From the IMG/VR virus record IMGVR_UViG_3300028534_000023, positions 9,641-73,640 of that record: 64,000 nucleotides of DNA. The stretch is one strand, 5' to 3'. Origin of the DNA: a virus (taxonomy: Duplodnaviria > Caudoviricetes). Under the pieces are notes generated by a model. It saw only the letters and a list, made by a program, of their open reading frames with translations. It was not told the DNA's origin and ran no database searches. Positions 3,306-63,282 of this stretch are shown in pieces; positions within the stretch are counted from its first letter, which is position 1; each line of letters starts with the position of its first letter. The position numbers and the translations under genes are program-made.

Positions 3306-3403
3306 ATTGTTTTGTTATACTGCCGTGTTGTAGTTATGTTTTTTATACGGTTCAGTTTATTAAATACTGTCCATTCAAGCAGCTATGTAAAAATTTTATT
3401 TAT

Positions 3404-3613
3404 TATATATCTAGTCGGCATTTAACTTTATAGATTGTACAAGTATATTTCATAAGGAAAGATAGCTGTTAGCGTTAATTTTAATAGATATACACAATGT
3501 CTACTGAGTGAAATAACACCTGTGTTGTTTTGAATAAATGGTTGTTATGATAACGTTTAGAGAAAAATATTATCACTTGTAACAACCTAGGTTAAATGCC
3601 TACTAGATACATA
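3404..3613. repeat. 23-bp imperfect inverted repeat (21/23) bracketing ~165 bp; a 13-bp direct repeat tgtacaagtatat lies at 3436 and 3620
   Basis: 3404-3426 tatatatctagtcggcatttaac versus the reverse complement of 3591-3613, tatgtatctagtaggcatttaac. Confidence 0.8.
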
Positions 3614-26307: not shown

Positions 26308-26937
26308 ATGACATACCAACAATTTATAGACATGGCAAAAGCAGGTGAATTAAAATCTTTAGCTATTAAAACAGATACTGAAGCTATATTATCATTTGTT
26401 AATTTAGGTCTTTTAGAGTTATATAAAAGATTTCCTATAAAAACTGTAGAACATATAGTTGAGTATGACGAGAATAATATTACACAAGAATATAAAATGC
26501 CTGCTGATTACATGTGGTTAGTAGCTGCTTATTGTGAAGTACCTTCAAATTATTCTGACAACACTATGTCACTTCCTATTAACAGTGTAGACGATCCTTA
26601 CACTGTAAACACTGTAAGTTATAATACAATACAGATACCTATGATGGCTTCGCAGGAACGTGTATCGCTAATATACGCTGCTTCTCCAGACATTGTTACA
26701 GAAACTGACATATTATCTGAGTTAGATTTACCTATACCACCTCAACTTATAGACTCGCTAATGTTATATGTAGCGTATAAAGCAAATGATACTGTTGCTG
26801 GCAATAAAACAGATATAGAAAGCAATGTACATTATACTAGATACGAATTAAGTATAAAACGTGTAGTGGCTGAAGGTATGTTTAATGAAGAGAGCTTAGA
26901 TATGTCTGGAAGACTTTATCAAAAAGGATTTATATAA
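26308..26937 (+). CDS. Virion structural/adaptor protein (N4 gp67-like)
   Basis: ILSFVNLGLLELYKRF and LMLYVAYKA patterns; position after terL. Confidence 0.7.
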   Translation: MTYQQFIDMAKAGELKSLAIKTDTEAILSFVNLGLLELYKRFPIKTVEHIVEYDENNITQEYKMPADYMWLVAAYCEVPSNYSDNTMSLPINSVDDPYTVNTVSYNTIQIPMMASQERVSLIYAASPDIVTETDILSELDLPIPPQLIDSLMLYVAYKANDTVAGNKTDIESNVHYTRYELSIKRVVAEGMFNEESLDMSGRLYQKGFI

Positions 26938-29900: not shown

Positions 29901-31310
29901 CGTACAGAAGATAAGTTTACAGATATAACCATAAATGGCAGTTTGGTAGAGTTTAAAACGTCTGAGCAGGATATTCCAAGCATAGTAAATATAGCATCAG
30001 GCAATAAAGAAACTGTTATATTACTAAATGACGGAACTGTGTTTACGTCTGGAGATTTTTCAGACAGTGCAGTATTCGTTCAAGATACTACCGTTACTGA
30101 CTTTATAACTGATTTGTTTGACGGTGTAAGAGGTGTATGGATAAAGAAAGTAGATGGAACTGTTTTATATAGAGGTGCAAATTATAATTTTACTGCAGGG
30201 CTTGGTCATAGAAGCACTGTTTATCAGTGGACAGAAATACCGTACTTGAAAAACGTAAAAAAGATAGTAAGTACTACAAACTTCTCTGTAGCATTAACTG
30301 ATTTAGGGTTTGTACACACTGTAGGATATGTAGTATCTGCAGACAGCTATCTACCTAACGGTACTACTGCGACAACAGATAAATTTACTTTAGTTGACGG
30401 CATAGATAACGTAATAGATATAGCAGTATCTTCTACTTCAACATTCATGCTAAAAGCAGACGGAAGTGTGTACGGCGTAGGTAAGGCTTATGGTTTGTTT
30501 GAATCTATATCAGATGCACATCAAAGTGGTTTAGTTAACGATTATTCAGCTGTGCTAAAACCTACTAAAGCTGTAGGACTTCCTAACGACATAGTTAAGA
30601 TATTCGGAGGTTCAAGTTCTTCAGAATCAATAGTATGTGTTTCAGCTGACGGAAGTATGTACTGTAACTATGAGAATACTACGTATAACGATATAGGTGG
30701 TTTGAAAGATTTATCTACTGATGCTTTTACTTACTTAGGTATTAAAGGAAAATATTTTACTACTGGGTATCACTGTTCGTTCTACATAGACGTTGACGGC
30801 AACTCGTTTGCAAGTGGTTATAACTACGGAAATCAATTAGGGCTTTCATCTAGTGTAGACTCGTATACTGAAATAGATGTACCTACAGGTGTATCTAAAA
30901 TAGTTACAGCCTATAATCAATCATTGTGTATAACAGATACAGATATTATAGGAGTAGGCGAAAATAGTGTAGGTGAGTTAGGTGTTGATGATACAACTGA
31001 TAAAGATACATGGGCAACTGCTACCATAAGTATAGACTCTAACTTTAACGGATTTAGGGCTTTATCAGAATATATTCCGTTAAACAACATTACTGACATA
31101 TTTATAGATGTGATAGGTAGTAATAGTATTGATAGTATATACGTGTCTTTGTATAACATTACAGAAGAATATGTTTTTATGGAAGATACTACTTCGTACC
31201 TATACTCTAACGGCTCTGTTCTTCTTGACGAGGATTATACACCGTTTACTGAAAGAAGTATAGCAACTAAAAAATACGCAGATGATTTAGTATCTGTTGT
31301 AGAGTGGTAA
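26937..31310 (+). CDS. Tail fibre / receptor-binding protein with collagen-like stalk and two RCC1-like beta-propeller modules
   Basis: GXY repeats; repeated FSVALT..G.V, IAVS..STF.L...G.VYG.G and V.CVG.N..GELG RCC1-like blades; internal duplication. Confidence 0.85.
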   Translation: MGRSSTFCNSSTIPISQFIGSKYDDVKEVADKLDMLTEIANIDYNALLSALEEAQDFTGIVVVPTTTESRWDAETKTLYVKTVEGIQGEKGIQGERGEKGERGERGLQGLQGLKGDTGDKGDKGDKGDDGKPGVSIHHIKPVGTTEPNGQFTTPGYVDTYNLFADADETLVLGSFSVANPDLSIAPEVMTKSTYDSNSSGVVDNAEKLDGNTVDDVINAVVEKVPTSYAASNITLDTSEFDGNFDNSVTDVQAAINYLDNLITSGGNVTIESGDTPPVTAEDATLWLNTKNNSVYIYVNGVWVNATTSLSVTTISTVLSVILDTAPFSATSTTHVDTVKVCVVRNENLFTDITLNGNVLTFNKATEYTNMIKKIVPCYRSSVLLTNDGTIMEAGYDVSSNVFVPVNVNGFVRDIFYGHEAVWLLMYDGSVMYKGLNTSYTAGLGHSSEVASFTKVPYIENIKKIASTRDFSVALTESGNVFVVGDAEKNSTYLLNGDSSITSRFTYVDNLGHTVIDIAVSSMSTFILTSSNEVYGIGLAYGLYENLTDAYNLGLVNNMAVSNKLVKAVGIPNGDIVSIHGPSYVGSVSIACIDSSNIIYGNKEDSSYNELGGLKDTSTHGFSNLHITGTDIVIGYYCSFYIDLDGIVWASGLDYGGQLGTSGSVTEYTNTGISNVSYISSIQYNSFMVLNTDTFLCVGDNSSGELGIASDDSSTNEWSQYSVDIANSSGYIACTDVIKVDMGVDFEVSTVSGDTAGIDEVRILGYVVTDDNIHTVDTTDYLKIDGSRNLDSSYTPVDDYSVATKLYVDSISKVIEVSNVTDLDSIDGNIVHSVCVTSSTLGGIYVYDPYYTGTAYSYNGWVRQSNSGNKPAVDVYVDTTNFGGEVLSSEDTNLQLALNTLDKLVNTGGSVEVVKQDYPPASLKEGSIWYDTKNNMIFFSINGSWVNASKTVKVPFYNNILTTILENSTEYPLSIKSDTAVGAVRLLVRRTEDKFTDITINGSLVEFKTSEQDIPSIVNIASGNKETVILLNDGTVFTSGDFSDSAVFVQDTTVTDFITDLFDGVRGVWIKKVDGTVLYRGANYNFTAGLGHRSTVYQWTEIPYLKNVKKIVSTTNFSVALTDLGFVHTVGYVVSADSYLPNGTTATTDKFTLVDGIDNVIDIAVSSTSTFMLKADGSVYGVGKAYGLFESISDAHQSGLVNDYSAVLKPTKAVGLPNDIVKIFGGSSSSESIVCVSADGSMYCNYENTTYNDIGGLKDLSTDAFTYLGIKGKYFTTGYHCSFYIDVDGNSFASGYNYGNQLGLSSSVDSYTEIDVPTGVSKIVTAYNQSLCITDTDIIGVGENSVGELGVDDTTDKDTWATATISIDSNFNGFRALSEYIPLNNITDIFIDVIGSNSIDSIYVSLYNITEEYVFMEDTTSYLYSNGSVLLDEDYTPFTERSIATKKYADDLVSVVEW
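27189..27335 (+). repeat. Collagen-like Gly-X-Y repeat (about 16 triplets)
   Basis: GIQGEKGIQGERGEKGERGERGLQGLQGLKGDTGDKGDKGDKGDDGKPG. Confidence 0.95.
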
Positions 31311-36840: not shown

Positions 36841-37263
36841 ATGAAAAATTATTTTGAAAAAGAGTTGCAAGATAAACGACTCAGTTGTCCTTGTGGTTGT
36901 GGTGCAAAGGTATCTGATGAGCTACTAGAAAAACTAAACAAGTTACGTAACCTGTATGGAAAACCTGTATACATAGTTCAAGGTGCTACTTGTAAAGATT
37001 ATAGTGTTAATCATGTAGGAAGAAAACCTACCAGTACTCATATCAGTACAGAAGAAGAGAATGCCGTTGGTGTAGATATATCGAGTAAGACATTTGACTC
37101 CAAAGAAGATTACTTTAAATTCATAGCATGTGCTGTACAAGTAGGGTTTACAGGGTTTGGTCAAGGGTCTAAATGGGTAGGAGCAGGTAGTGATACTAGA
37201 TTACATTTAGATATTAAAAGAAGTAATGCAGGTGATTTTAGAAGCTGGTGCTATGGCTGTTAA
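36841..37263 (+). CDS. Peptidase M15A-type endolysin
   Basis: CPCGCG, LEKLNKLR...GKPV, STH...AVGVDI, GFTGFG, LHLDI zinc-peptidase motifs. Confidence 0.88.
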   Translation: MKNYFEKELQDKRLSCPCGCGAKVSDELLEKLNKLRNLYGKPVYIVQGATCKDYSVNHVGRKPTSTHISTEEENAVGVDISSKTFDSKEDYFKFIACAVQVGFTGFGQGSKWVGAGSDTRLHLDIKRSNAGDFRSWCYGC

Positions 37264-49585: not shown

Positions 49586-49616
49586 GTTTCAATAATTATG
49601 TTATAATTATTGAAAC
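49586..49616. repeat. Perfect 14-bp inverted repeat with 3-nt loop overlapping the extended -10 TGTTATAAT (49599-49607)
   Basis: gtttcaataattat-gtt-ataattattgaaac. Confidence 0.85.
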
Positions 49617-49642
49617 AATACACTATTTATGAGGTGCTTATT

Positions 49643-50092
49643 ATGCAAAACCCTTACAGTAACCTATATAAAGTCGATCCACTTACAGGGTTCAATACTC
49701 CTAAGACTGATTATGACAATTTTGTAGACGGCGTAAACAATGAATTAGATTTATACGATAAAGGTATTCCTACAGTAAAAAACGCCAGCAACTTACACAG
49801 TGGTACTCAACTAAGTTTAGATGATTTAGATTTCAGTGTTAATGGACTTGGTGGCACATTACTAGGTGTTGGACAACTCGGTCTTGGAGTAGCCAGTTAT
49901 TTGAACAGTAAGAAAACTGCTGACGCTCAACGTAATCTCATGCAGCAGCAATACGACACTAATAAATATGCTTTGGACAAAACTAAAGCAGATAATCAAC
50001 ACTTATTGGAAGTATTCAATCCGTCACAAGCAAAACAGTCGAGCAATGGTATAGTTGCTACTGGTGGTCTTGCTTCTATGTTATCAAAATAA
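49643..50092 (+). CDS. Putative ejection protein (N4 gp52 position)
   Basis: Gly-rich hydrophobic segment GLGGTLLGVGQLGLGVA followed by a Q-rich coil; GAGGT RBS before the ATG at 49643. Confidence 0.65.
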   Translation: MQNPYSNLYKVDPLTGFNTPKTDYDNFVDGVNNELDLYDKGIPTVKNASNLHSGTQLSLDDLDFSVNGLGGTLLGVGQLGLGVASYLNSKKTADAQRNLMQQQYDTNKYALDKTKADNQHLLEVFNPSQAKQSSNGIVATGGLASMLSK

Positions 50093-50105
50093 AAGGTTTA
50101 TCGCT

Positions 50106-51344
50106 ATGGCAACACCAAGATTTAATTTTAATACACAGCGAGTAGAAGACCCTACTAAAGGTGCTACTGCAGCGTTAGGAAATATCGCTGCAGTTATGAA
50201 AGCAGCTAACGATAGTACATTAAAACAGCGAGAGGCTGATAATTCTGATATGTTACTTGCTTCAAACATTGCTTACACTGATAGTAAAAATAGTAGAGAA
50301 CAGCAATTATTCGATCTAAAAATGAAAGAAGCTGCAGACAATGCTGACAGACAAGTAAAAAAGGACACTGCAAATGATGCAGTATTACAGCTTTATGCTA
50401 AATTCAACCCAAATAATATAGGAAGTAGTAAAGGTCTTGAAAAAGTTAGCGACAGAATATCTGCATTTTATAACAAAGGTGTCAACAAAGCTGAACAAAG
50501 AATAGCAGAGCTTGGGTTAAACGCTGATAACGGAGATGGAGATGCTATAGCAAAAATTTACCGTGAGTCTATATGGGGAGACGGGACTACAGAAGCCGAA
50601 GCATCTACAAAAAGGCAACAACTGCAAAAAATTTATGACTCTAACACACTAGGTAAGAATGAAGCGTCTGCATACATTAGAGAAATGCTAGCATCAGCTG
50701 GCGCTGGTCCAAATGTTATAAACACTACTATCAGAGATCTCGCTGCAGGGTTACATGATTACGACAAAGAAGATTCATTAACTGCAGATAGAGTAAACAA
50801 ACAAAACGATAAACTAGCAAAGTTGGCTTTAGATGTAGCTAAAGTTAATATGACTGCTGCAAATAAACGTGGTAATATACTAGCTAAAAAGAAAAGATCT
50901 GGTGTAAGCAATTCAATAAAAACATCAGACTACCAGAAAATATTTAAAACTCTTAACGATGATAGATACAGACTATCTGAAGATGCTACATCTACTCTAA
51001 AAAATCAGCTACTTAAAATGCAAGCTGCTGGGGTACCTTCGTACGAAGTCTCATCATTGCTAGAAGGTGTAATAAAACCTGGAAAAGAAGGAGTTTTATT
51101 TGATGATGCAGGTGGGTATCAGACAAAAACATTTTCATCTTATGCTAAACATCTTATAAATAAATACGGAAGTAATAGAGGCAGATCTTCTAACGTTCAC
51201 GTACCTGTAGTTCGTACACTAAACCCTGCAAACTTTATGCCTAAACATGTTACTAGTACTGACATCGCAGACGCTCGTAATACTGGCACAGAAGCTCGTG
51301 GTAACATGCTACTTGACATGATTCTGCGTAGAAAAAATAAGTAG
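50106..51344 (+). CDS. Putative ejection protein (N4 gp51 position)
   Basis: Helical ~412-aa protein; likely start MATPRF at 50106; directly upstream of the vRNAP locus. Confidence 0.65.
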   Translation: MATPRFNFNTQRVEDPTKGATAALGNIAAVMKAANDSTLKQREADNSDMLLASNIAYTDSKNSREQQLFDLKMKEAADNADRQVKKDTANDAVLQLYAKFNPNNIGSSKGLEKVSDRISAFYNKGVNKAEQRIAELGLNADNGDGDAIAKIYRESIWGDGTTEAEASTKRQQLQKIYDSNTLGKNEASAYIREMLASAGAGPNVINTTIRDLAAGLHDYDKEDSLTADRVNKQNDKLAKLALDVAKVNMTAANKRGNILAKKKRSGVSNSIKTSDYQKIFKTLNDDRYRLSEDATSTLKNQLLKMQAAGVPSYEVSSLLEGVIKPGKEGVLFDDAGGYQTKTFSSYAKHLINKYGSNRGRSSNVHVPVVRTLNPANFMPKHVTSTDIADARNTGTEARGNMLLDMILRRKNK

Positions 51345-51360
51345 CTTACAAGGATATACC

Positions 51361-54300
51361 ATGGAGTACGATATTTCACAAGCAGGTTCTGCTGCTGTAG
51401 ACAATTTTACTACTGCTGTAGAAAATGATTATTCGTCTTCTGCAACAGAAGAATACAAAACAAATAAATTGTCTTCTGTTGCGCAAGATAAAGTATCAAG
51501 ACTTTCTGGCAGATCTGTCGCACCTGACATATCTCCAGAAGCTGCATACGCTTTAAGCTCGTTTGACGAAGTACCAGAAGGTACATCTTTTTCTGATGAC
51601 TACTCTTCTAACCTATCTGCACTCACTAATACTGTAAGGGGTGGTGTTGGAGCATTTGCAAGTACAGTAGTAAATCTTCCATTGCAGTTAGCTTCTACAT
51701 TAGAATCTGCTGCTACTTACGGATCGTCTAAATACTTATATGGAAAATCTGATGAAGATGCTTACAAAGATGCGCAAGTCGCTAGTTTTTATTCTGCTGA
51801 TACAGCTAACGATCTTACACATATGTTACAAGGAGAGCAATTTACTAGACACCATGCTGCTAAACAATCCGAGTTTGACAAGACATTCAAAGAGTCTGGG
51901 CTATCCGATTTTGACATTTTTAACCCATCAGAATCGTTAGATAAATTAGACGGAGGTAAGGTAGTAGATACTGTAAAAACTGCCTTTAGTGATGTAGATT
52001 CTACTGTGGATTCTTTAGGACATGTTGCAGGGTTTTTACTAGGTATACCTGAAAAAGGTTTAAGATACTTAATGTCATCATCTGTTGGAAAAGTCACAGC
52101 TCACCAAGCTGCTAAAAAAGAATTGTCTAAACTCATTGATAAAGCTGCAAAAACAGAAACTAAAATAAGTACTGGTTCAATCAGTAAAAGTGATGTCCTT
52201 AACAAGGGTATTGTCATAAACTCTATAGATGATTTAAGTAAAGCAGCTAAAGCTAAATATATCACATTCGCAAACCCGTCTGTAGAAAAAGAGGTTACTA
52301 AACAATTAGCCAAGTCTACAAGAGTTTTAGATAATGTAGGTACAGGTTTAAAAACTAGGGCTTGGATTCTTAATAATTCAAACAACCTAGCACTAGCTTC
52401 TGATATGTCTTTACAAGATCTTGATGAATACCAGAAAAAATATGGTGACATGCCTACACTCACACACGCTTTACTTGGTTACGGCGCTAACTTTGTAGGA
52501 GCTAAGTTAGAGCTATGGAGTGATAAACTTGCTTTAGCAGGTACTCCACAAGGAGTATCAGAACTTGTTGCAGGTATGGGTAAAACGAAGGCTAAAAAAT
52601 TCGTAACAGGGCTTGTTGCAGGTAGTCTTAGCATGCTTGAAGGTGGTATAGCTGAATTTCCTGCAGAATTTGTACAAAGTGCTATACAGAGTTTTGACTC
52701 TAGCTATAAAGACGAAAGTACTTTTACAGAAAGCGTAAAAAAGGCATTTAACGACGGTTTAAAAGGTTCTATATATGGACTATCTTCAGGTGTACATATG
52801 TCTACACCTAGAGCATCTATTAAACCATTTACTAACATGATAAATAGTGGTACATCAAATACGTATGATGCTGTAAATACTATAACTTCCGACAACGGAG
52901 TTTCACTTAAGCAGTCAATAGCCAACGAGACAGGTGTCCCTGCAGAAGACCATAATGTAGTTATAAATAGTATTGAAACTGCTATGAATACTGCTGACAC
53001 ACCTGTCAACGAACTGTTTACGCCAGATGAACTTAAAGCAAATCGAAATCTTGTTGATAACTATGTGCTTACTCTAGGAGATGAAGTAAAGCGCATAGAC
53101 TCTATTATTAGTGATGACAACAACGAGCTTACAGAAGAAGATAAAACCAATCTACTAAGTAAAAGAAACGATTACAGTGCAGGTATTGCCAAATTTATGG
53201 AAATGCGCGAATACCTAGAAGATCCAGATACAGGATATACGTTAAATAGTAGACCTGTCAGCTCTATAGAAAAAGATCTAATGTCAGTATCTGAGCAGTT
53301 GAAAGAAAGTCCATCAGACAACAAACTTAACAAGCTTAAAAGATACCTTGAAATCGAGAAATATGTTGCAGAACACCCTGCTGTAAAATCTACAGGTGTA
53401 ATTGGAGATAGTGGCGTAGATACTGTAGGAGATGACATAAAGTCTAGTATTAACACTACTCGTATTCAAGGATTGTTTGGTGGGTACACTGATGACGGAT
53501 ACCGTACAGGTATTATGCATATGATTAAACCGTTGCTTAATCAAGATAATACAAAAGAGCAAACTACAGCAGCTGTAAACAATATAAATAGATTTATAGG
53601 ATCACAAGTAGCTAAATACGATGCTCTTATTAAGTCTAAAGATAAGTACGAGTCTAATGGGAATGTCCCTGTAAAGGTAAACTATAAAACACCAAAAGGT
53701 ACTGTACATAACGTCGTATACAACGGAAAACAGTCTGATAGTTTTTTAAAAAATATAAAAACAGATATAGATTTATACAACAACATACTTGAGATGGCGT
53801 TAGGCAAGCCTTCTAGCAATGGCATAGATAATAATACACGTACCAGTAGTACAGTACAAGCTACTAAATCAGTTGACAATTATGACAGTATACCAGATAA
53901 TGAGAAAAATTCTATAAAACAGCTTTTGACTGAATCAGCTAACAACAACTCTTCATTATCGTTAAACAGTTTACTTACAAAATCAGCTGTGCATAGAAAA
54001 TACACCAGAGAGCTAGCTAACAAACTTGGCATTAAGCTAAGTGTACGTGACGGTTCTATATTTGTGAATACAGAAAAACCTACGTCTGGTAATACTGCAA
54101 CTAAACCTGCTAATAATATTGTACAAAACAGTAGTAAAGACAAACCTAAGTCTGTTACAGACAAAATAAGTACTTCCAATGTACAGTCATCCAATAAATT
54201 ATCATCTCATGACGCTAAAGCAATTGAACAAGTTATTGATAACTTACTTAACGGTGGAGAAGATGTAGACGTAAAAAACAGCATAGTAGCAAAGACAAAA

Positions 54301-55269
54301 TTACATAAAAATTATACAAAAAAAGTCGCTGATAAACGTGGTATAAAACTTTTTATTAATAAAGGTAAACTAAAAGCAAGGAATGGTGGTAAGCATGAAA
54401 CCTCAAATAAAGGCATTAAAAGAAAGACTAAAGAAGGTACAACAAATGAAAAAAGAAGGAAATCAGTTACTGTCAAAGACGAAAGTAGCTATGAAAAAGA
54501 TTCATTAAACAATGCCGTAACTCGTAGTAACAATTTATTGAATCTAAACATGTCTACACAAGAATTGATTGATGTTTTAATTGATGAATCTTATACGCAG
54601 TCAAACCTAGTTGAAAGTGCTAGAGTAATTGAAATAACTGCTAATAAACTACTTGATACTGATAACAGTATATCAATTGATGAAAAAACGCAGCTAAATT
54701 TACTAGTAGATTTAGCTAATGAGCTTATTTCATTACACAATGTAAAAAAAGAGCTAACTGCTTCTGCAAATAAACTCAACAATGTGCGTAACTTTTATGT
54801 AAAACTTCATCTAAATAACATCAATAAATGGCTTAATAAGTATACTGACACTTATAAAAAACTATCTACAAGTAGTAAAAGAAAAGCTACAAAAACATTT
54901 AATACGCTTGCAGGTAGTAGGATAGTTTCTTCAGGCAGGTTAAAAAATACCAAGAACAAAGATGCTGTACTGCTTGGTGACATAACAGACAATAAAGAAC
55001 TGTTTAATACTGCCATGCAATTATCTGGTAATGAATATTTTAACCTTGTATCTGATACTGAATCATACAGTAAAAGAAAATCTAGCATAGAAAGTCGCAT
55101 TAAACGATTTAGGAATGAGGCATCGTTTTATAGTAGTAAACGTAATAAACAAGTAGCAAATCTTACTTCTGTAAAAGATAGTGTAGCTAGTAAGGACCTT
55201 GTTGATAAGTATAACGTATCTACCGATACACTAGAGTCTTTACACGAATTTTTAGGGGGTTGTAAATAG
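51361..55269 (+). CDS. vRNAP locus part 1: large virion/ejection protein without polymerase motifs
   Basis: 1302 aa with amphipathic/hydrophobic N-terminal segments; abuts the RNAP ORF in the same frame. Confidence 0.75.
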   Translation: MEYDISQAGSAAVDNFTTAVENDYSSSATEEYKTNKLSSVAQDKVSRLSGRSVAPDISPEAAYALSSFDEVPEGTSFSDDYSSNLSALTNTVRGGVGAFASTVVNLPLQLASTLESAATYGSSKYLYGKSDEDAYKDAQVASFYSADTANDLTHMLQGEQFTRHHAAKQSEFDKTFKESGLSDFDIFNPSESLDKLDGGKVVDTVKTAFSDVDSTVDSLGHVAGFLLGIPEKGLRYLMSSSVGKVTAHQAAKKELSKLIDKAAKTETKISTGSISKSDVLNKGIVINSIDDLSKAAKAKYITFANPSVEKEVTKQLAKSTRVLDNVGTGLKTRAWILNNSNNLALASDMSLQDLDEYQKKYGDMPTLTHALLGYGANFVGAKLELWSDKLALAGTPQGVSELVAGMGKTKAKKFVTGLVAGSLSMLEGGIAEFPAEFVQSAIQSFDSSYKDESTFTESVKKAFNDGLKGSIYGLSSGVHMSTPRASIKPFTNMINSGTSNTYDAVNTITSDNGVSLKQSIANETGVPAEDHNVVINSIETAMNTADTPVNELFTPDELKANRNLVDNYVLTLGDEVKRIDSIISDDNNELTEEDKTNLLSKRNDYSAGIAKFMEMREYLEDPDTGYTLNSRPVSSIEKDLMSVSEQLKESPSDNKLNKLKRYLEIEKYVAEHPAVKSTGVIGDSGVDTVGDDIKSSINTTRIQGLFGGYTDDGYRTGIMHMIKPLLNQDNTKEQTTAAVNNINRFIGSQVAKYDALIKSKDKYESNGNVPVKVNYKTPKGTVHNVVYNGKQSDSFLKNIKTDIDLYNNILEMALGKPSSNGIDNNTRTSSTVQATKSVDNYDSIPDNEKNSIKQLLTESANNNSSLSLNSLLTKSAVHRKYTRELANKLGIKLSVRDGSIFVNTEKPTSGNTATKPANNIVQNSSKDKPKSVTDKISTSNVQSSNKLSSHDAKAIEQVIDNLLNGGEDVDVKNSIVAKTKLHKNYTKKVADKRGIKLFINKGKLKARNGGKHETSNKGIKRKTKEGTTNEKRRKSVTVKDESSYEKDSLNNAVTRSNNLLNLNMSTQELIDVLIDESYTQSNLVESARVIEITANKLLDTDNSISIDEKTQLNLLVDLANELISLHNVKKELTASANKLNNVRNFYVKLHLNNINKWLNKYTDTYKKLSTSSKRKATKTFNTLAGSRIVSSGRLKNTKNKDAVLLGDITDNKELFNTAMQLSGNEYFNLVSDTESYSKRKSSIESRIKRFRNEASFYSSKRNKQVANLTSVKDSVASKDLVDKYNVSTDTLESLHEFLGGCK

Positions 55270-58200
55270 ATGGGTAAATGTAATATGAAAGTATCCAATG
55301 AGGATATAGCAAAGTTTTTACAAAATAGGTATAAAAGTATTGACGCCAAAGATGTTACAGCTTTACATAAAGCAGTTGTCGATAATGTTTCACTATCTAC
55401 TCATTTTACTGCAAATCCAAACACAAGGTCTAATCTAAATAACGTAGATCACACAACAGACCCTCATATAAAGATAATATTTGACAATATCCATAGCCTT
55501 ATAAACAATATCTCTGTTAATGACAATTTTGATAAAACCTTTATAAATCCTTCTTCTGGGTATAGTGTAACTACTGGTTGGCAAAGTTTTATAACTACTA
55601 CGTTTACTGACGTAACATCGCTCGACAGCAATGGAAACAATATAAAACATAGACAGTTTGTTGATGTAAATATTCCTAAAGCTATTGCACTTGCTACAGC
55701 TAGTGTGCTTTCTGATTACGTAGTCCCACTACTACCTGGTAACAGAAGTGACGAAGCTGTACGAGCACTTACTTTCAAAGATAAAAAATCTTACATATCT
55801 CCATCATTACGTAAATCTGTTGGAAATTTTGACGCTCTATATAATCCAACAGTACAAGAAATAGGTATAAAAGCCTTTAAGCTACTAGGACTTAAACCTG
55901 CTGACAGTGATGTTTTTAATAACGATAACATAATGGAAACTTTTATAGCAGAACTAGGTATGATAGGGTTGCATTCAATCCCTGGATTTAGTGTAATGTA
56001 CCTGCGTGAAGTTGATAAAAATAACATGCTTACTAATGTAACGTTACTTAATCCAGACACTAAAGTTGTCATATTTCCTAAACAATATTATAAGAACGAC
56101 GACAGTGTTACTAATACTGTAAAAATAGTTTCTCAATACAACAATAAATTGCATGTCAATATAGGAGATAAGAACTCTGTATCTAGTATAAGGTCACAAA
56201 TGGAGCTTGCTACTCATACTGCTGAAGATAAGTATGGTATGTATAAATATCCTGTTACAGACTATAAAAACTTAAATATTAAAGGAGCTACGTCAGTAAT
56301 TGGTGACAATGAGGTTAGTACTGTACATAGAAATGCTTTAAAACGTCTAGGTACTACTGGAATGTATCATAAACCAGGATACGTAAAAGCCATAGAATCT
56401 CTCAACTCAATAGTATATGATGACGGTTCAACACATCTTACGAAGCTTCTTGGGTATATAGATCCATCTACAGTGATTAAAGGTCTTAAAGAAAAAGTCA
56501 ACGGCAAAAACAAAATGATAACTGATCTTGTTGACAATTACTTTGACGCCGTATCAGAATTTGGTGTAAATAATCCTATGTACGCTAAATTTGATATTGT
56601 TGCAAACGGAAGATTTTACTTAGACAGCAACAAGTTTAACTATCAAGATAAAAAACTACATCGTATGGGAGTATACGCAAAAACAACACCTGTCAACAGT
56701 GCTAATATAAATACTTTTAAAATTGCTATCGCACAGTCTTTTGGTGTTAAAACTGACAAAATGCTTCCATCTGACTCTATAAATAGTTACAAACGTATTT
56801 CCGATGATATACTAAATAACGTAACTGACGAATTATCTGATGTATATAATATTATTAAAGAAAGTGATGATAATACTACTATAGACAGTGTTAGAAATAC
56901 TGCAGAGTACGTTAACGCGTTAGTCTCTATTATAGATTATGTCACTAGTAAATATAATAAAGAAGATCCTGAACTTGCTATATCAGGTTCAGTAGAATTT
57001 TTAGATTATGTTATAAATACTGACATGTTAAACAGTTCTCACGAATCTTCAATAATGCCTGAAGGTGACGGTAAAACTTCTGGTAGAGGTATTAAACTTG
57101 TACTATTTCCATTGTTTGACACATTTGACGAATATGTTAAAGAACTTGAGCGAGTAGGTGTATACGTTGAAGGAAAATCTGGATTCAAAAACGTAGCTGA
57201 GTTTGAAACAGACAGCAGTACTTACGATGCTTATAACTATCCAGCCAAAATATTTACAGATACTTTAAAATCGTTTTCAAATATACCAGAAGCTTTAAAA
57301 GTACTCATAGATCCTGACTTCAATGGTGGTGTCATAAGCAGATCGTTCATGAAATCACCTGTAATGGTAGCTGATTATGGCGCTGGTATAAAAAGCATTG
57401 TAGACAATATCATACAGTCTGCAGAAATAAATTTTTATGACTTAGTTAACAATTACTACCAAGACACTGTTGACAATAGTATTGACAATACTACACTACC
57501 TATATACATAAAAGATAAACTGTTTTTATTTGCCGATACTCAACATAGTATTATAGATAGGCTTATGTCAGATCCGTCTAATTTTGAATTAACTTCTAAA
57601 GAACTGTCACGTCTTAAATCTTATATTATGTACAACTCTCCGTACCCTTTAAAAGATTCTAAAGGCAATATACTAAGTCCGTCTTCTGGTGCAGTTGAAT
57701 CTGCATACAAGGCTTTAGAGGTTACATTTGATAAATTTCTTGGTAAATATATTTCTCTTAATAATAACCTTAACAGTGCTATAGTTACTCAGTTTAAACT
57801 AGGAAAACTTTTGTTAGATAATAAACTACAAAAAAGATATAATTACTTAGTAAACAAATATGGCAGTGCTACACTAGTGCCACCAGTCACTAAAAAAGAA
57901 CTATACGGTATGATAGCTGACTTATCTGATGTATTTCCTGTAATCAATACAGCTTTAAATAAATCAGACGGTAACAAAGCAAGAATGTTGATAGCTTCAT
58001 TTGAAAAGGCGCGTAAAGGTTCTAAAGAATTGCTAGGAAACGTTTCTCCTACAGGTGCTATACGTATTGCAGGTAAAATGCATAACTCAGCTATAGAAGT
58101 ATATTCTTTAGTAGAGGCAGTTTCTTCTGGAATGGTTTTACCTGTACACTTTTTTGATTCTGGTGTTATAGCCCATCCACTATCCGTGTTTGATGGTATA

Positions 58201-59385
58201 GGTATCCACGATGGTTTAATGACATCTATAGATGATATTGTAGACAGTGTTTCACTTTATAACAAGGCTTGGATTACTATGGCTAAAGACTATAGTCCAC
58301 TTCAAGAAGTAATAAAAAGTAGTTTACGCACCTTAAAAGAAGTTACTGAATTTACAAATTCTTCTGACTTAAACGCATTACCAATCGAAGATTTAATGTC
58401 TTTTAGTAACCTACTCCAATCATTAATTACGTCCATAAAAACTCTTGACGGTTATGATTCCACTGCTTCTAAATTAAAAGAAAAATTATTTAATTCTGAC
58501 TTATATGTATCTCAGATGTACTTTCAGTCAGTAGATCCTGGAGGAAACCTACTAGACGGTTCATATAAGTACAATTCTTCTAAAGATTCTAAATTGCATT
58601 ATACTACTGTTTTGAAAGGTTATGATGGTTATGGTACAATTTTATCTGCTGCTAACACAGCTGTAGGTATGTTGAGCAATATACTTGAACCCAGTGATAA
58701 AAATACATCATCGTTAAAAGCTTTTGATGATTATTTGCATGAAGTAGACCTTACTATAGAACAGGTGTACGAAATTCAGAAAGCAAATGCACTATACCTA
58801 CAACATACTGATGCTAAAGTTTTTAGAGGGTCATTGTTTGAATATGATCCACAAAAAGACGTGATTACTACTATACCTAAAGAGTATATGGATGAATCAG
58901 AATACGAAGTCTATTTAGCGCATGAAATTCGTCATAGAATTACATATGATTACTTATCACGTAATATACACAGTAATGAAGTAAAGTATTTACTAAAAGC
59001 TGTAAAGAAAATAGCTAAAGATTTTGACGTTACAGGTAATATTACTTTTGATGATATGGCTCTTTTTAATAGGCTTAAATATATGACTAGTAAAGGAACT
59101 GATTTAGAAAATGTTGCAGAAATTGTAGCTATTTTAAGTTCTGAGCCTAATGTTAGAAATGCTTTTATTAAGCATTTTCCACAAAAAACTCGTAGCAAAT
59201 TACATGAATTATTCGATAAACTAAAAGAGTATTTAGGCATCTATAGCGATCCTGCTTACATTATACCAGTAATCGATAATATTGTTGAAGAAAATTTACC
59301 TAAAACTTTACGCAAAACGTTTTCATACAACAATTTAAGTGATGCTACTGTACAATTTATAACAGATTTAGTAAAGGAGTGTTAA
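55270..59385 (+). CDS. vRNAP locus part 2: N4-like virion RNA polymerase catalytic domain plus C-terminal zincin motif
   Basis: DIVANGRFY..NYQDKKLHR, EGDGKTSG (motif A, ~57061), RSFMKSPVMVADYG (motif B), GIHDG (motif C, ~58201), AHEIRH. Confidence 0.9.
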   Translation: MGKCNMKVSNEDIAKFLQNRYKSIDAKDVTALHKAVVDNVSLSTHFTANPNTRSNLNNVDHTTDPHIKIIFDNIHSLINNISVNDNFDKTFINPSSGYSVTTGWQSFITTTFTDVTSLDSNGNNIKHRQFVDVNIPKAIALATASVLSDYVVPLLPGNRSDEAVRALTFKDKKSYISPSLRKSVGNFDALYNPTVQEIGIKAFKLLGLKPADSDVFNNDNIMETFIAELGMIGLHSIPGFSVMYLREVDKNNMLTNVTLLNPDTKVVIFPKQYYKNDDSVTNTVKIVSQYNNKLHVNIGDKNSVSSIRSQMELATHTAEDKYGMYKYPVTDYKNLNIKGATSVIGDNEVSTVHRNALKRLGTTGMYHKPGYVKAIESLNSIVYDDGSTHLTKLLGYIDPSTVIKGLKEKVNGKNKMITDLVDNYFDAVSEFGVNNPMYAKFDIVANGRFYLDSNKFNYQDKKLHRMGVYAKTTPVNSANINTFKIAIAQSFGVKTDKMLPSDSINSYKRISDDILNNVTDELSDVYNIIKESDDNTTIDSVRNTAEYVNALVSIIDYVTSKYNKEDPELAISGSVEFLDYVINTDMLNSSHESSIMPEGDGKTSGRGIKLVLFPLFDTFDEYVKELERVGVYVEGKSGFKNVAEFETDSSTYDAYNYPAKIFTDTLKSFSNIPEALKVLIDPDFNGGVISRSFMKSPVMVADYGAGIKSIVDNIIQSAEINFYDLVNNYYQDTVDNSIDNTTLPIYIKDKLFLFADTQHSIIDRLMSDPSNFELTSKELSRLKSYIMYNSPYPLKDSKGNILSPSSGAVESAYKALEVTFDKFLGKYISLNNNLNSAIVTQFKLGKLLLDNKLQKRYNYLVNKYGSATLVPPVTKKELYGMIADLSDVFPVINTALNKSDGNKARMLIASFEKARKGSKELLGNVSPTGAIRIAGKMHNSAIEVYSLVEAVSSGMVLPVHFFDSGVIAHPLSVFDGIGIHDGLMTSIDDIVDSVSLYNKAWITMAKDYSPLQEVIKSSLRTLKEVTEFTNSSDLNALPIEDLMSFSNLLQSLITSIKTLDGYDSTASKLKEKLFNSDLYVSQMYFQSVDPGGNLLDGSYKYNSSKDSKLHYTTVLKGYDGYGTILSAANTAVGMLSNILEPSDKNTSSLKAFDDYLHEVDLTIEQVYEIQKANALYLQHTDAKVFRGSLFEYDPQKDVITTIPKEYMDESEYEVYLAHEIRHRITYDYLSRNIHSNEVKYLLKAVKKIAKDFDVTGNITFDDMALFNRLKYMTSKGTDLENVAEIVAILSSEPNVRNAFIKHFPQKTRSKLHELFDKLKEYLGIYSDPAYIIPVIDNIVEENLPKTLRKTFSYNNLSDATVQFITDLVKEC

Positions 59386-59387
59386 CC

Positions 59388-62300
59388 ATGCAATGTAGCA
59401 CACATCTTACAAAGGAACAGATAGATAAGGTAATTAGTATGAACCCTGATACTGATCCAAGCATTATCGTAAAAGAGGCTAATGCAGCCTATTATGACAG
59501 AATTAAAAACAAATCTGTACTAAATCGTAGTAATAGTTCTGATACTCTTTTTAATTTTAGTGATGTAGATAGTACTGTTTTGCATGAACTTATATCAGGT
59601 AAAGAGTTGTTTAAAGGTGATGTTAATACTATAATTACTCAGCTAAATAAATTAGACAGAGAGTCTGCTTACTACGATGAAGACCATAGTAAGTACTTAC
59701 ATGATGTACTATCTCAATTTCAAAGTACTGTAAAAGAACTTAGATCTTATTCTGTCAACGTTACTAAAGACTTTATTGAAGGTTTAACAGAACCTGTAGG
59801 AGAACATAGTAAAAATAAGATATCGATTGCAACTGCAAAAGGTATAGCGTCCAGTATCTTAAATCTTACAAACGAAGAAACTTTAGTACATGAGTATACT
59901 CATGCATTTACCAGTGTAGTGTTCAACAAAGAGCTAGGTATTTATGCTACTGATATCAAGAATCAATTACGAAGTTTGTATGAAACAGCCAAAGACAATC
60001 TTACATATAAAGACTTGCTTGATGGTATCAGTAATCATTCTAGTACTGATGTACAACTTGCTAAACGTATGTATGATTATATATTTAACGGAAACATACT
60101 AGACTATTCTATACAAGATGCTAATGCCAGATATGCAGAGTTTTTAGCTTACGCCATGACAAACAAACAATTTAAAAAAGCTTTATCAAAAATCGAAGCG
60201 TATCCTAATGAAACTGACATTATGGATAATAATGTAAAATCTACTTTGTATAAATTGTTTATGAGAGTAGTTAATTTTGTTAACAATATAACTAATAAAA
60301 AGTTTAAAGTAAGTAAAGACAAGACTGCTACCGTAGATTTAGAAGTTGGTAGACTACTTCTTGAAATAGGTAAGATAAATCAAAAATATGGGTACAAAGC
60401 AGTAGAAACAATAAACGAACCGTTAGACCAAAGAGTATCAAAAACTGTTATAAACAATTTAGAAAAGTTAGATAACAAGCTTTTTAAGTTTACTACAAAA
60501 AGTACTGAAAAGTTTTTTAACAGTATTGATATCAACGTATCTCCAGATGATAAAGAACAGTTTGCTAAAGTCGCTAAAAAGTTGAATAACAATATCAATA
60601 AACTGCGTAAAGATATTACGTCCAAAGATTTAAGTTTGTTTAAAAAATCCTATGCCTACGCTGATATTATATACAATATCAATAAATTATATTATCTATC
60701 TAAAAAGACAAAAAATAAAGAATTTTACAAAAAGTTAAATGAGTTTATGCACCAGTTCGATGCTTTAGGTTTGCATTATTTAACAGATGTTATAAAAGAC
60801 TTCAAAACAGGTAGTAGCACATTTGTAGAAATTAGTGATAAAGCTATGCAGTTTAAAACACATTTAGATAGAGTTAGAGATATTTATTATAAAGGTACGT
60901 TAAAATTTTTACTTGAAGAATTTAAACATTTTGATATGAAACATAATCGTAATATCGAGTATAATAAAGTACTAGATAGGGTAATACTTCGTACAGATAT
61001 ACAAAGCGTTACTACTAGTGTTAACGAACTTAAAAAACTATTGTCTAATGCAGATTATAGAAGAAATAAAATAGCATCTATTGAAGATGAATTAAAAACT
61101 GCTATCGCTACTACACTACTTGATGAGATAACTATAGGAGATGGAATTGTAAATGACTGCAAAAGTTTAGCTTCATATATGACAACAGGTGTAGGACATA
61201 GAACAAATGCTGTAAACATAGCTAGACGCTTTGGGTCATTTAATGTTATAACTTCTGATGAATTTCCTAACATACAAGAAGCATATAATATCAATGACAT
61301 AGTTAAAAAAATAGATAAGCTTACAAGCTTATATGCTCTTGACAACAACACTGAAAAAGACTTTAAAATGATGCTAGATCTTATAGCTAAAGATCGTAAC
61401 GGAGTTGAAAAATTTATTAACACAGCGTTTGGAGCTGCTGTTGCACATTACGAAGATTTTTATACTGCAGATAATTTACACAATCTTGTCAAGGGGCAAG
61501 GACATATACGTTATGATAGAGACAAAGAGCTTATATTTGCTCCATTGTCTGATTTAACAGAACTTAAAAATGCTGGATACCATTTTGTTAGAAAGATGAA
61601 ACAAGATTCTATGGATACCGATGATACTCCTTACGGTGTTTTTTATACTACTGATCGTATGAGTAACAAAAGAGTTGACGGTACACTAGGCTTGCAGCAA
61701 TTAAAAGTTCACGGTCTTTTATTAAGTCAAAAAATAATGTATTCAAATCCACACTTAACTGGCAAAAAATTAGGTGATAGGATAACAACTGCTATAGCAG
61801 AAGCAAGATACTCTAAAAGTGGATTGTATGAACACATGTATCCAGTGTACAACTCAGAAGGTGAGATAATAGATTTCAGGTATGAGTTCCCTATCAACGA
61901 AAGAGAGGAGTTACAAGGTATAGAAGTACGTGGTATTGAAAATCTATCTCGTAGCATAGGACAGAAAGAATCGCAATTACGTACAAATACGCATAATAGG
62001 GAAATCATAGATATAATACTAGAAGATACTGATAAGCACGTAGATGAACCTGACTATGAGTTTTTAGTACTTCACGCACCTGAAAAAATTATTACACCTG
62101 AAGGTAAGGTTGTCGATAACGGTGCACGTACTGAAGGTGAAGAATTGTGGGGACTATTACCTGACGATGCTAAAAACTATATAATAGACATCAACAAATC
62201 TTCTGATAATAAATACGGAAAAAATGGTACGTATAGACATATAAAAATACGTAAAGAGTTACTTACTCAGCTGTTCGGATATGATGAACCAAGTATTACT

Positions 62301-63266
62301 GAACTACCTATATTTAAAAAAATATCAATGAAACGTGTAAAACAGTTCAAAACTATTGAAAGATATTGGATAGATCTTATTAGCATAGCTAAAAGCAATG
62401 TTGTAGTTAAAACATTAGAAACGCAATGGAATAACATAATGTCTAATGCTAAATTTTTCTTTTTTTCTGGAGTACCTCCAAGAGATGCAGGTAGATATTT
62501 AGCATCCAGTAAATTGTATCTTGAAGACTGGAAAAAGCTTGAGCGTAATATTAGGCTATTAGAAATAAGAGCAGACTCAGAAAAAACCAGTTCTCGTAAA
62601 CACAGCATAGAAAAACGTATAGCAATGCTTAAAGCAAAGCAAAACGATAATCCCTTAATGCCGTTATTTGATGCAGGATTGTATCAGGTTATTTCTGAAG
62701 ATATAGATGTAGAAGAAGACAACAACACTATTACTAAAGCTATTACAAGCAAGTTTGATAACTTATTATCTAAAAACACTACTCTTGAATCCGTCATAAA
62801 TACTATCTTTTTGACAAGAAAATCTACAGCAGGTAAAATCTTAATACATACTATGCAAGAATCTGATTTTCACTTTAGAGCTGCTATATACCTTCATGGT
62901 ATAGCTAATGGTAAAACTAAAAAAGAAATGCTTCGTAAAGTAACAGATAACTTTATAAATTACTCTAAAGTAACATCGAGCAGATTTATCAGATACCTTA
63001 ACAATACAGCTCCTGAAGCTTTCTGGACATATTTTGCTAATATTCAAAGAGTTAATTGGGACCTGATTAAAGAAAAACCTGTACGAGTTATTATAGATAC
63101 TTTAGGAAAAAATTTCACTGATTATGTACCTACTGATACTCTTGACAGTTCTTTTATATCTGAGCTAGGAAAACGCGCTAACCCTGTATATTGGGTCACT
63201 AACACTTCTAACCTGTTTGTAAGATCTTTCGATATACCTATTTTACACGTATTGCGAGGTTTTTAG
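59388..63266 (+). CDS. vRNAP locus part 3: large virion protein with zincin HExxH motif
   Basis: VHEYTHA...AEFLAYA; AAGGAG RBS inside the upstream ORF before the ATG at 59388. Confidence 0.75.
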   Translation: MQCSTHLTKEQIDKVISMNPDTDPSIIVKEANAAYYDRIKNKSVLNRSNSSDTLFNFSDVDSTVLHELISGKELFKGDVNTIITQLNKLDRESAYYDEDHSKYLHDVLSQFQSTVKELRSYSVNVTKDFIEGLTEPVGEHSKNKISIATAKGIASSILNLTNEETLVHEYTHAFTSVVFNKELGIYATDIKNQLRSLYETAKDNLTYKDLLDGISNHSSTDVQLAKRMYDYIFNGNILDYSIQDANARYAEFLAYAMTNKQFKKALSKIEAYPNETDIMDNNVKSTLYKLFMRVVNFVNNITNKKFKVSKDKTATVDLEVGRLLLEIGKINQKYGYKAVETINEPLDQRVSKTVINNLEKLDNKLFKFTTKSTEKFFNSIDINVSPDDKEQFAKVAKKLNNNINKLRKDITSKDLSLFKKSYAYADIIYNINKLYYLSKKTKNKEFYKKLNEFMHQFDALGLHYLTDVIKDFKTGSSTFVEISDKAMQFKTHLDRVRDIYYKGTLKFLLEEFKHFDMKHNRNIEYNKVLDRVILRTDIQSVTTSVNELKKLLSNADYRRNKIASIEDELKTAIATTLLDEITIGDGIVNDCKSLASYMTTGVGHRTNAVNIARRFGSFNVITSDEFPNIQEAYNINDIVKKIDKLTSLYALDNNTEKDFKMMLDLIAKDRNGVEKFINTAFGAAVAHYEDFYTADNLHNLVKGQGHIRYDRDKELIFAPLSDLTELKNAGYHFVRKMKQDSMDTDDTPYGVFYTTDRMSNKRVDGTLGLQQLKVHGLLLSQKIMYSNPHLTGKKLGDRITTAIAEARYSKSGLYEHMYPVYNSEGEIIDFRYEFPINEREELQGIEVRGIENLSRSIGQKESQLRTNTHNREIIDIILEDTDKHVDEPDYEFLVLHAPEKIITPEGKVVDNGARTEGEELWGLLPDDAKNYIIDINKSSDNKYGKNGTYRHIKIRKELLTQLFGYDEPSITELPIFKKISMKRVKQFKTIERYWIDLISIAKSNVVVKTLETQWNNIMSNAKFFFFSGVPPRDAGRYLASSKLYLEDWKKLERNIRLLEIRADSEKTSSRKHSIEKRIAMLKAKQNDNPLMPLFDAGLYQVISEDIDVEEDNNTITKAITSKFDNLLSKNTTLESVINTIFLTRKSTAGKILIHTMQESDFHFRAAIYLHGIANGKTKKEMLRKVTDNFINYSKVTSSRFIRYLNNTAPEAFWTYFANIQRVNWDLIKEKPVRVIIDTLGKNFTDYVPTDTLDSSFISELGKRANPVYWVTNTSNLFVRSFDIPILHVLRGF

Positions 63267-63282
63267 ACCTCGTTTTTGTTTT
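63255..63282 (+). terminator. Terminator at the convergent junction
   Basis: cgaggt-ttttag-acctcg followed by tttttgtttt; the hairpin contains both stop codons. Confidence 0.75.

Follow-up and report, generated by a model that had tools for sequence, protein, structure and literature searches.

A virion RNA polymerase of an N4-like phage encoded by three abutting genes, with single cysteines at the broken ends

The DNA analysed here, hereafter the window, comprises 64,000 nucleotides (nt) of a distant N4-like phage (bases 9641-73640 of the 73,640-bp IMG/VR viral contig IMGVR_UViG_3300028534_000023). At the position where phage N4 encodes its virion RNA polymerase (vRNAP) gp50, three abutting open reading frames (ORFs) follow one another on the plus strand, namely ORF1 (51361..55269; 1302 amino acids, aa), ORF2 (55270..59385; 1371 aa) and ORF3 (59388..63266; 1292 aa), which are last in a structural operon of N4 gene order and which we assign to the N-terminal domain (NTD), the RNA polymerase (RNAP) and the C-terminal domain (CTD; IVP-D-like) of a split vRNAP. 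Whereas one giant polypeptide of about 2,800-3,800 aa is a trait of the vRNAP family, each of the three ORFs here has its own start and stop. The initial annotation had described three ORFs of ~1,300 aa each, of which only the middle one carries RNAP motifs and whose borders match domain boundaries; all of this was borne out, and a further feature, paired cysteines at the broken ends, was found.

Three modules at the position of N4 gp50

ORF1 ends in ..GGT TGT AAA TAG, with the ATG of ORF2 following directly in the same frame and a GGGGG run located 10 nt upstream of this ATG. ORF2 ends in ..GAG TGT TAA and is separated by 2 nt from the ATG of ORF3, which is read in a different frame. The ORF call had placed ORF3 at 59379-63266; the ATG at 59388, which yields the 1292-aa product, is the more likely start, because a Shine-Dalgarno (SD) sequence, AAGGAG (59374..59379, plus strand; read directly from the sequence), stands 8 nt upstream of it. 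A terminator-like hairpin with a T-run (63254..63273, plus strand) overlaps the ORF3 stop and marks the operon end, and no terminator-like site was found at either internal junction; the three genes therefore appear to close one operon and to be co-transcribed.

Among the three ORFs, ORF2 alone matched the polymerase region in the PHROG profile of vRNAPs, its residues 159-1040 aligning with positions 1054-1894 of 3406 in the profile of PHROG 2206 (virion RNAP, gp50-like; E 1.3e-48), and BLASTP aligned residues 410-1025 with N4 gp50 1377-1991 (E 4e-9). The motifs of T7-like polymerases can be recognized in this region: motif A (E598-x-D600-x-x-T-S-G605, 57061..57084, plus strand; EGDGKTSG versus EADGVTNG in N4) with the catalytic Asp, motif B (S690-R691-x-F-M-K695-x-P697, 57337..57360, plus strand; SRSFMKSP versus KRGIAKNP) and motif C (H980-D981, 58207..58212, plus strand; IHDG versus IFDG within IFDGM) with the second catalytic Asp, all of them invariant in the ORF2-family alignment. 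Judged by these motifs, ORF2 is a T7-like single-subunit RNAP core with motifs A, B and C intact, a natural mini-vRNAP, and it looks catalytically competent, because the Asp, Arg/Lys and Asp residues of the three motifs align to N4 and are invariant in the family. None of the Pfam vRNAP domains PF21867, PF21894, PF21769 and PF21624 scored above threshold in ORF2, while N4 matches all four; the middle genes of relatives matched PF21894 and PF21867 weakly or at the cut-off. Likewise, phmmer searches of the PDB with ORF2 or ORF3 did not reach N4, a search for related loci starting from ORF2 alone retrieved no relative, and an ORF2-family profile search found only 3 proteins.

The CTD assignment of ORF3 rests on both profile matches and a structural model. 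Residues 70-1265 matched the C-terminal part of PHROG 2206 (profile positions 2250-3380, E 1.2e-113), and residues 195-1252 were aligned by BLASTP to N4 gp50 2478-3456 (E 5e-12). An HExxH motif (H168-E-Y-T-H172, 59889..59903, plus strand) in a C1-like subdomain is invariant across 20 diverged CTDs; in N4 gp50, the HExxH sits in subdomain C1, residues 2124-2375 (PMC13434306). An AlphaFold2 model of ORF3 residues 1-450, built from a 23-sequence alignment (mean pLDDT 68), comprises a disordered tail (residues 1-61) and a confident domain with the HExxH helix (62-270); the rest of ORF3 after residue 270 is a large helical C2-like part. The best PDB match of the model was N4 gp50 itself (9PNT), with a Foldseek probability of 0.90 and a VIA Z-score of 10.0 over 183 residues, the register of the VIA alignment being uncertain, as model residues 71-343 were placed on N4 2373-2592 and not over the N4 HExxH at about 2229. 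Taken together, predicted fold and sequence identify ORF3 as the CTD of a vRNAP with a conserved HExxH subdomain. A separate observation concerns an HExxH of ORF2 (HEIRH, 58921-58935, residues 1218-1222), which lies in a C-terminal extension of ~170-200 aa and aligns weakly to the C1 motif of N4. Relatives are devoid of this lineage-specific tail, and we rejected HEIRH as a meaningful motif; it is probably a chance occurrence or a lineage-specific addition.

ORF1 is the most diverged of the three. It consists of a conserved core (residues about 90-815) followed by a C-terminal half of low complexity rich in Ser, Asn and Lys, and its helices are Gly/Ala-rich and moderately hydrophobic; for comparison, the NTD of N4 is lipid-binding and is followed by a low-complexity linker of 100 residues (PMC13434306). 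Single-sequence searches with ORF1 were empty (Pfam, PHROG, tblastn against phages, phmmer against the PDB), BLASTP gave no match to N4 gp50, a word-indexed search returned ORF1 itself only, and a language-model atlas returned unannotated viral clusters only. A search with the ORF1-family profile among longer proteins found nothing, which counts as weak evidence by the tool's own grading, and hidden Markov models (HMMs) built from 4-sequence families of the split modules did not match N4 gp50 itself. The first gene of the relatives described below encodes a homologue of ORF1 (E 2e-104 and 2e-29), and, upon iteration, the ORF1-family HMM reached the N-terminal region of the fused vRNAP P0046 (residues 211-691, E 1.2e-54), then P0033, P0123 and P0146, and also matched proteins in which NTD and RNAP are fused, the matches always lying upstream of the polymerase domain. 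A direct comparison by hhalign of the ORF1 family with the N-terminal region of P0046 gave a probability of 99.2 (E 8.8e-20). Since both the iterated profile and hhalign reach the NTD of fused intermediates, we regard ORF1 as a true NTD homologue at the sequence level, linked via these intermediates and too diverged for a direct match to the N4 NTD. Thus, the relationship of both flanking ORFs to gp50, which the initial annotation had left to be checked, could be established by PHROG, BLASTP and Foldseek for ORF3, and by hhalign and the iterated HMM via fused intermediates for ORF1.

In N4 gp50 the NTD extends over residues 1-906 and the RNAP over 1007-2101, connected by a linker (907-1006), and a second linker (2102-2123) precedes the CTD (2124-3500) (PMC13434306). 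Extrapolated from the alignment anchors, the start of ORF2 falls close to residue 900-970 of N4 gp50. Among fused relatives, the end of the ORF2-family HMM and the start of the ORF3-family HMM lie at 2372/2396 (P0046), 1938/1967 (P0111) and 1934/1950 (P0074), and the HExxH follows the ORF3 start by 167 residues, compared with 105 residues between the beginning of C1 and the motif in N4. On the basis of anchors, HMM boundaries and HExxH spacing, both breaks are placed at the two flexible linkers of N4 gp50.

Reality and distribution of the split

An exhaustive HMMER search with ORF3 retrieved 1,440 relatives, the nearest ~30 of which are all stand-alone proteins of 1,200-1,530 aa. The three-gene arrangement recurs in relatives from several independent samples, with products of 1541/1165/1363, 1526/1199/1402 and at least 1232/1302/1384 aa; relatives with the same order of NTD, RNAP and CTD genes share 19-44% identity and stem from other samples, more distant ones keep at least the break between RNAP and CTD, and the split is common to >7 diverged lineages. 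Contigs that run across both junctions exist in an independent study of 2025; they differ by about 2-4% substitutions and zero indels. By our own count, 27 of the 39 substitutions listed within ORF2 fall on third codon positions, which argues for purifying selection.

These findings bear on the notion that a single gp50-like ORF was broken by a sequencing or assembly error or by gene decay. Split vRNAP annotations were read in this way in a published survey: in this 2023 study of N4-like phages, two split cases were concatenated, miscalls or readthrough were suggested, and vRNAP hits <2,500 aa were removed (PMC10654107). In the case of Shigella phage pSb-1 the interpretation seems fitting. Its adjacent ORFs gp101-103 jointly cover a vRNAP, as do the ORFs described here, but they are devoid of cysteines, one break falls inside folded C1 (N4 residues 2250-2263), and GTG has to be assumed as the start codon of one piece, so that this annotated split looks like an artefact. 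In contrast, the split considered here is kept across many diverged lineages and samples, the independent-study strain combines zero indels with mostly third-position changes, the breaks lie exactly at linkers with proper starts, and the cysteine signature described below is absent from pSb-1. An artefact is practically out of the question for the window; the stops are not errors, and the split is genuine.

A second way of arriving at a gp50-like fusion would be programmed recoding, in the form of TAG readthrough from ORF1 into ORF2 and a frameshift from ORF2 into ORF3. The first junction might at a glance invite this idea, as ORF1 and ORF2 share a frame and are separated by a single TAG. However, across related loci the junctions differ in frame relation, use all three stop codons and either overlap by 1-10 nt or are spaced by 0-25 nt, the gaps in the relatives being 9-25 nt; this excludes that readthrough or frameshifting is conserved. 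ORF3 comes with an ATG and a strong SD of its own, the stretch 59360-59390 contains no evident slippery heptamer, and readthrough of the ORF2 TAA would meet a TAG 13 codons on. Moreover, TAG is a normal stop in this phage, terminating 8 of 33 ORFs, and no tRNA gene, and hence no suppressor tRNA, was found on the contig. Recoding thus appears hardly credible.

In the literature searched, we found no description of such a split-vRNAP clade, and there was no cultured example of a true split among the candidates looked at, which besides pSb-1 were the Alteromonas phages PT15-A5 and AD45-P1. PT15-A5 has a fused vRNAP gene. In AD45-P1, whose annotated split was, like that of pSb-1, taken for an error in the literature (PMC10654107), an incomplete coding sequence abuts the start of the linear record; its vRNAP ORFs were not located, and the position at which the record was opened may account for the reported two-ORF vRNAP. 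We conclude that the split is a real and widespread vRNAP variant that has been overlooked by surveys.

Cysteines at the broken ends

Complete absence of cysteine is a further trait of the vRNAP family: the fully fused vRNAPs (41 representatives plus N4 gp50) contain 0 Cys in 3,000-4,700 residues. ORF1-3 depart from it with 5 Cys in 3,965 aa, versus about 34 expected at the 0.85% Cys content of the remaining phage proteins, and 4 of the 5 are terminal, lying within 4 residues of a junction terminus. ORF1 has a sole Cys at its penultimate position (Cys1301, TGT, 55261..55263, plus strand; ..GGCK before the stop). The two of ORF2 mark its broken ends, Cys4 at the N-terminus (TGT, 55279..55281, plus strand; MGKC..) and Cys1371 as the last residue (TGT, 59380..59382, plus strand; ..VKEC before the stop). 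ORF3 has Cys3 at its N-terminal broken end (TGT, 59394..59396, plus strand; MQC..) and an internal Cys591. Cys1301, Cys4 and Cys1371 are invariant in the respective ORF1- and ORF2-family alignments. Cys3 is invariant in 20- and 23-sequence alignments of ORF3-type CTDs, and thus as strictly conserved as the HExxH residues.

The pattern extends well beyond the window. A single Cys, at position 3-5, is present in about 85 representatives of the stand-alone CTDs, and two-part proteins combining RNAP and CTD mostly have one as well, at position 3-7; an N-terminal Cys occurs in 84 split representatives and in no fused one. When 55 IMG/VR loci were scanned, 48 junctions between abutting large ORFs were obtained, 32 with Cys on both sides, 16 with Cys on neither side and 0 with Cys on one side only. 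The 16 Cys-free junctions represent the natural boundary between a gp51-like gene and the first module. The rule was seen in four architectures (N/R/C, NR/C, N/RC and NR/x/C, with slashes for gene breaks between the N-terminal, RNAP and C-terminal modules), with almost no Cys elsewhere. At the NR/x/C loci L018:1339-13933 and L045:3-12229, the middle piece of 360 or 641 aa has exactly two Cys, one per end. In a two-part lineage, a 2,436-aa RNAP+CTD protein starting MAC (L012:10001-17311) is preceded, at a distance of 6.6 kb and with eight genes between, by the gene for an 825-aa protein (L012:879-3356) that ends in ..YKECG with its only Cys and is the only upstream protein with a terminal-Cys signature in this lineage; the presumed partner thus need not be encoded adjacently. 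In phylogenetically independent pairs, the association of an N-terminal Cys with split forms held by about 7 to 0 (p about 0.016). Where stand-alone tips fall within fused clades, most of them contain no Cys and are probably truncated fragments.

The Gly or Glu codon that precedes the C-terminal Cys often serves as an SD at the same time. Nucleotide context nevertheless does not explain the Cys codons, as the Cys is retained at loci with the SD past the stop and at loci with a partner gene kilobases away. Viewed across these loci, the pairing of terminal cysteines is strongly supported as a new rule at the level of protein sequences. In the paper on phage DEV (PMC11445570), terminal cysteines of gp51/gp72-like ejection proteins are dismissed; these could be further cases of the rule, in another ejection protein.

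What might the cysteines be for? We slightly favour the idea that the modules are joined end-to-end by disulfides in the virion, that the resulting string is threaded for ejection, and that it is reduced in the cytoplasm. Each module would bond via its C-terminal Cys to the N-terminal Cys of the module that follows, most likely in a disulfide, which is the simplest chemistry given one thiol per end; matched cysteines on the chains to be joined are also what characterizes disulfide-tethered multi-chain proteins. Linked in this way, the modules would rebuild a quasi-linear beads-on-a-string chain with 1:1:1 stoichiometry and fixed order for packaging and tail threading, a mode of ejection that has been proposed for N4 (PMC13434306). 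Cysteines 0-6 residues from the chain ends would make the joint hardly thicker than an uninterrupted chain, suiting passage through the tail and the ejection-protein channel. The reducing cytoplasm would then cut the links, leaving the NTD module membrane-bound and releasing the polymerase from the CTD, by which it is autoinhibited in N4 (PMC13434306). Structural disulfides are known from phage virions (PMC10172136, PMC13576161).

The both-or-neither distribution of cysteines would be compatible with any mutual end-to-end interaction, and thus also with a non-covalent assembly in which the terminal Cys form paired Zn/Fe clasps between chain ends or between copies, or dock to another virion protein. 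The RNAP and CTD of N4 are indeed tightly associated via an interface of modest size (PMC13434306), and the residue preceding the C-terminal Cys is often Glu, which could serve as a metal ligand, or Gly. Yet there is only one thiol per end, with no conserved His or second Cys nearby, so that a tetrahedral site would need oligomerisation. In the AlphaFold2 model, Cys3 of ORF3 lies on the predicted 61-residue disordered tail, far from the HExxH site, and the placement 0-6 residues from the termini would be best explained by a thin, threadable covalent joint. We therefore hold a metal or other non-covalent clasp to be possible, albeit rather unlikely.

True protein ligation, akin to native chemical ligation or intein splicing and yielding a peptide-bonded chain of ~3,960 aa, appears very unlikely to us. 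A C-terminal Gly/Glu-Cys facing a near-N-terminal Cys superficially resembles splice-junction residues, and the HExxH domain adjoins one of the junctions; the junction between ORF1 and ORF2, however, has no such domain next to it. Pfam scans of the ORFs found no Hint or intein family, for which cysteines 0-6 residues from the termini would leave no room, and with the Cys at position 3-6 and a highly variable residue 2, no Cys with a free alpha-amino group is to be expected.

Several points weigh against disulfide-linked modules. The linkage is read from a pattern in sequences, the disulfide being what we infer from it. The internal Cys591 of ORF3 and an extra Cys near the C-terminus of gene 2 at locus L007 depart from the rule, and the positions of N-terminal cysteines depend on the choice of start codon. 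Virions assemble in the reducing cytoplasm, the apparent vent or epibiont habitat may be low in oxygen, and a CxxC scan of the phage proteins revealed no obvious thioredoxin, glutaredoxin or oxidase motif. Finally, the suppression of Cys in ejection proteins of Schitoviruses (0.00075% for gp71 homologues) has been credited to their passage via the oxidising periplasm and is usually read as avoidance of oxidation there (PMC11445570); a pre-formed disulfide would have to survive this passage. Still more general, and with even chances in our estimate, would be the notion of a 'disulfide splice', whereby phages split a giant ejected protein and rejoin it via a single Cys per broken end, at all break positions, the arrangement having been gained or lost at least about 11 times.

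Genomic context, evolution and relation to known systems

Upstream of the three genes, the window encodes terminase, tail fibre, portal (PHROG 1216), a gp57-like protein (PHROG 2120), the major capsid protein (PHROG 1357) and genes of the sizes of gp55/54/53/52/51, which is the N4 order, in which gp50 comes last. Two small genes just upstream of ORF1 (49610-51344; 160 and 429 aa) occupy the positions of N4 gp52 and gp51; they had no PHROG match and are cysteine-poor (0 and 1 Cys), as expected of ejection proteins. DNA polymerase, helicase and a small T7-like RNAP are encoded on the other arm of the contig. A 591-aa ORF (18770-20545, minus strand) with weak matches to the T7-like RNAP PHROGs 414 and 2051 and to three PHROGs of unknown function may be a single-chain counterpart of the heterodimeric RNAPII of N4. 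A 1,457-aa tail-fibre-like protein (26937-31310) contains collagen-like tail-fibre segments and RCC1-type repeat regions (PHROGs 7220, 16766, 4219), and an ORF of 140 aa located shortly before the portal gene (36841-37263) ends in CYGC (residues 137-140), a C-terminal cysteine pair. Promoter-like sites were not enriched (66 found versus 72 expected).

The DNA of 54800-59900 was matched in sequencing runs of an epibiont metagenome, the likely source, in those of the separate 2025 study at about 2-4% divergence, and, with small shares, in hydrothermal-vent metagenomes; no RNA runs were listed among the matching ones. Combined with a low GC content and SD usage, this distribution would fit a vent-associated host.

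In a CTD tree of 141 tips, architecture is clustered, with 23 changes versus 46.7 upon shuffling of labels, and at least 11 changes remain after dropping likely fragments. Stand-alone CTDs account for 88 of the 141 tips among the nearest CTD relatives. The window sits in a large, almost purely split clade in which a few fused forms (P0046, P0033) are nested, and forms of the N/RC type are dispersed over fused clades. Changes in both directions seem to have occurred; the tree being unrooted, we leave undecided whether the split is ancestral or derived.

An open problem of N4 biology is how the virion packages ~4 copies of a 383-kDa polymerase, keeps them in order and threads them via a ~35 Å channel (PMC13434306). 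The natural split versions provide ready-made domain boundaries and a natural mini-vRNAP, and the paired terminal cysteines make the beads-on-a-string model concretely and cheaply testable. A survey bias is corrected as well, since a census that dropped hits of <2,500 aa (PMC10654107) stands against the prevalence of stand-alone CTDs among the nearest relatives, and a whole clade of split-vRNAP phages emerges from vent and other metagenomes. For annotation, the terminal-Cys signature is a simple way to separate real splits from broken assemblies. Redox release, if true, would be a new way for phages to couple the activation of a protein to its delivery, and it might serve as a design principle for the delivery of large multi-part cargo.

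The closest known system is gp50 of N4 (Schitoviridae; structures 9PNR, 9PNT, 2PO4), which shares with the window the three modules, their order and operon position, the T7-like catalytic motifs, a CTD with an HExxH subdomain and the near-total absence of Cys. It differs in being one 3,500-aa chain without Cys, as opposed to three polypeptides with a Cys at each broken end, and sequence identity to the modules of the window is about 20-23%. By analogy only, the proposed release recalls two-chain toxins with a single interchain disulfide, in which an enzyme is tethered to a membrane-inserting module, threaded and freed by cytosolic reduction; there is no homology, and the toxin chains are products of one proteolytically nicked precursor, whereas those considered here come from separate genes and their linkage is one that we infer. 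Ejection proteins of the T7 gp14/gp15/gp16 type are likewise separate head-packaged proteins ejected in order through the tail, and stand-alone ORF3 is presumably about as long as T7 gp16. Unlike the system described here, T7 has no polymerase in the virion, and we know of no end-to-end cysteine pairing in T7-type internal virion proteins. The CTD of N4 has been assigned to the IVP-D family of Hardies (PMC4819975). Finally, crassvirus PhicrAss001 also has a virion-delivered transcription machine composed of three large proteins (gp47, gp49 and gp50), although with a two-barrel RNAP that is not T7-like; how these cargo proteins relate to NTD, core and CTD is a question raised in the N4 structure paper (PMC13434306).

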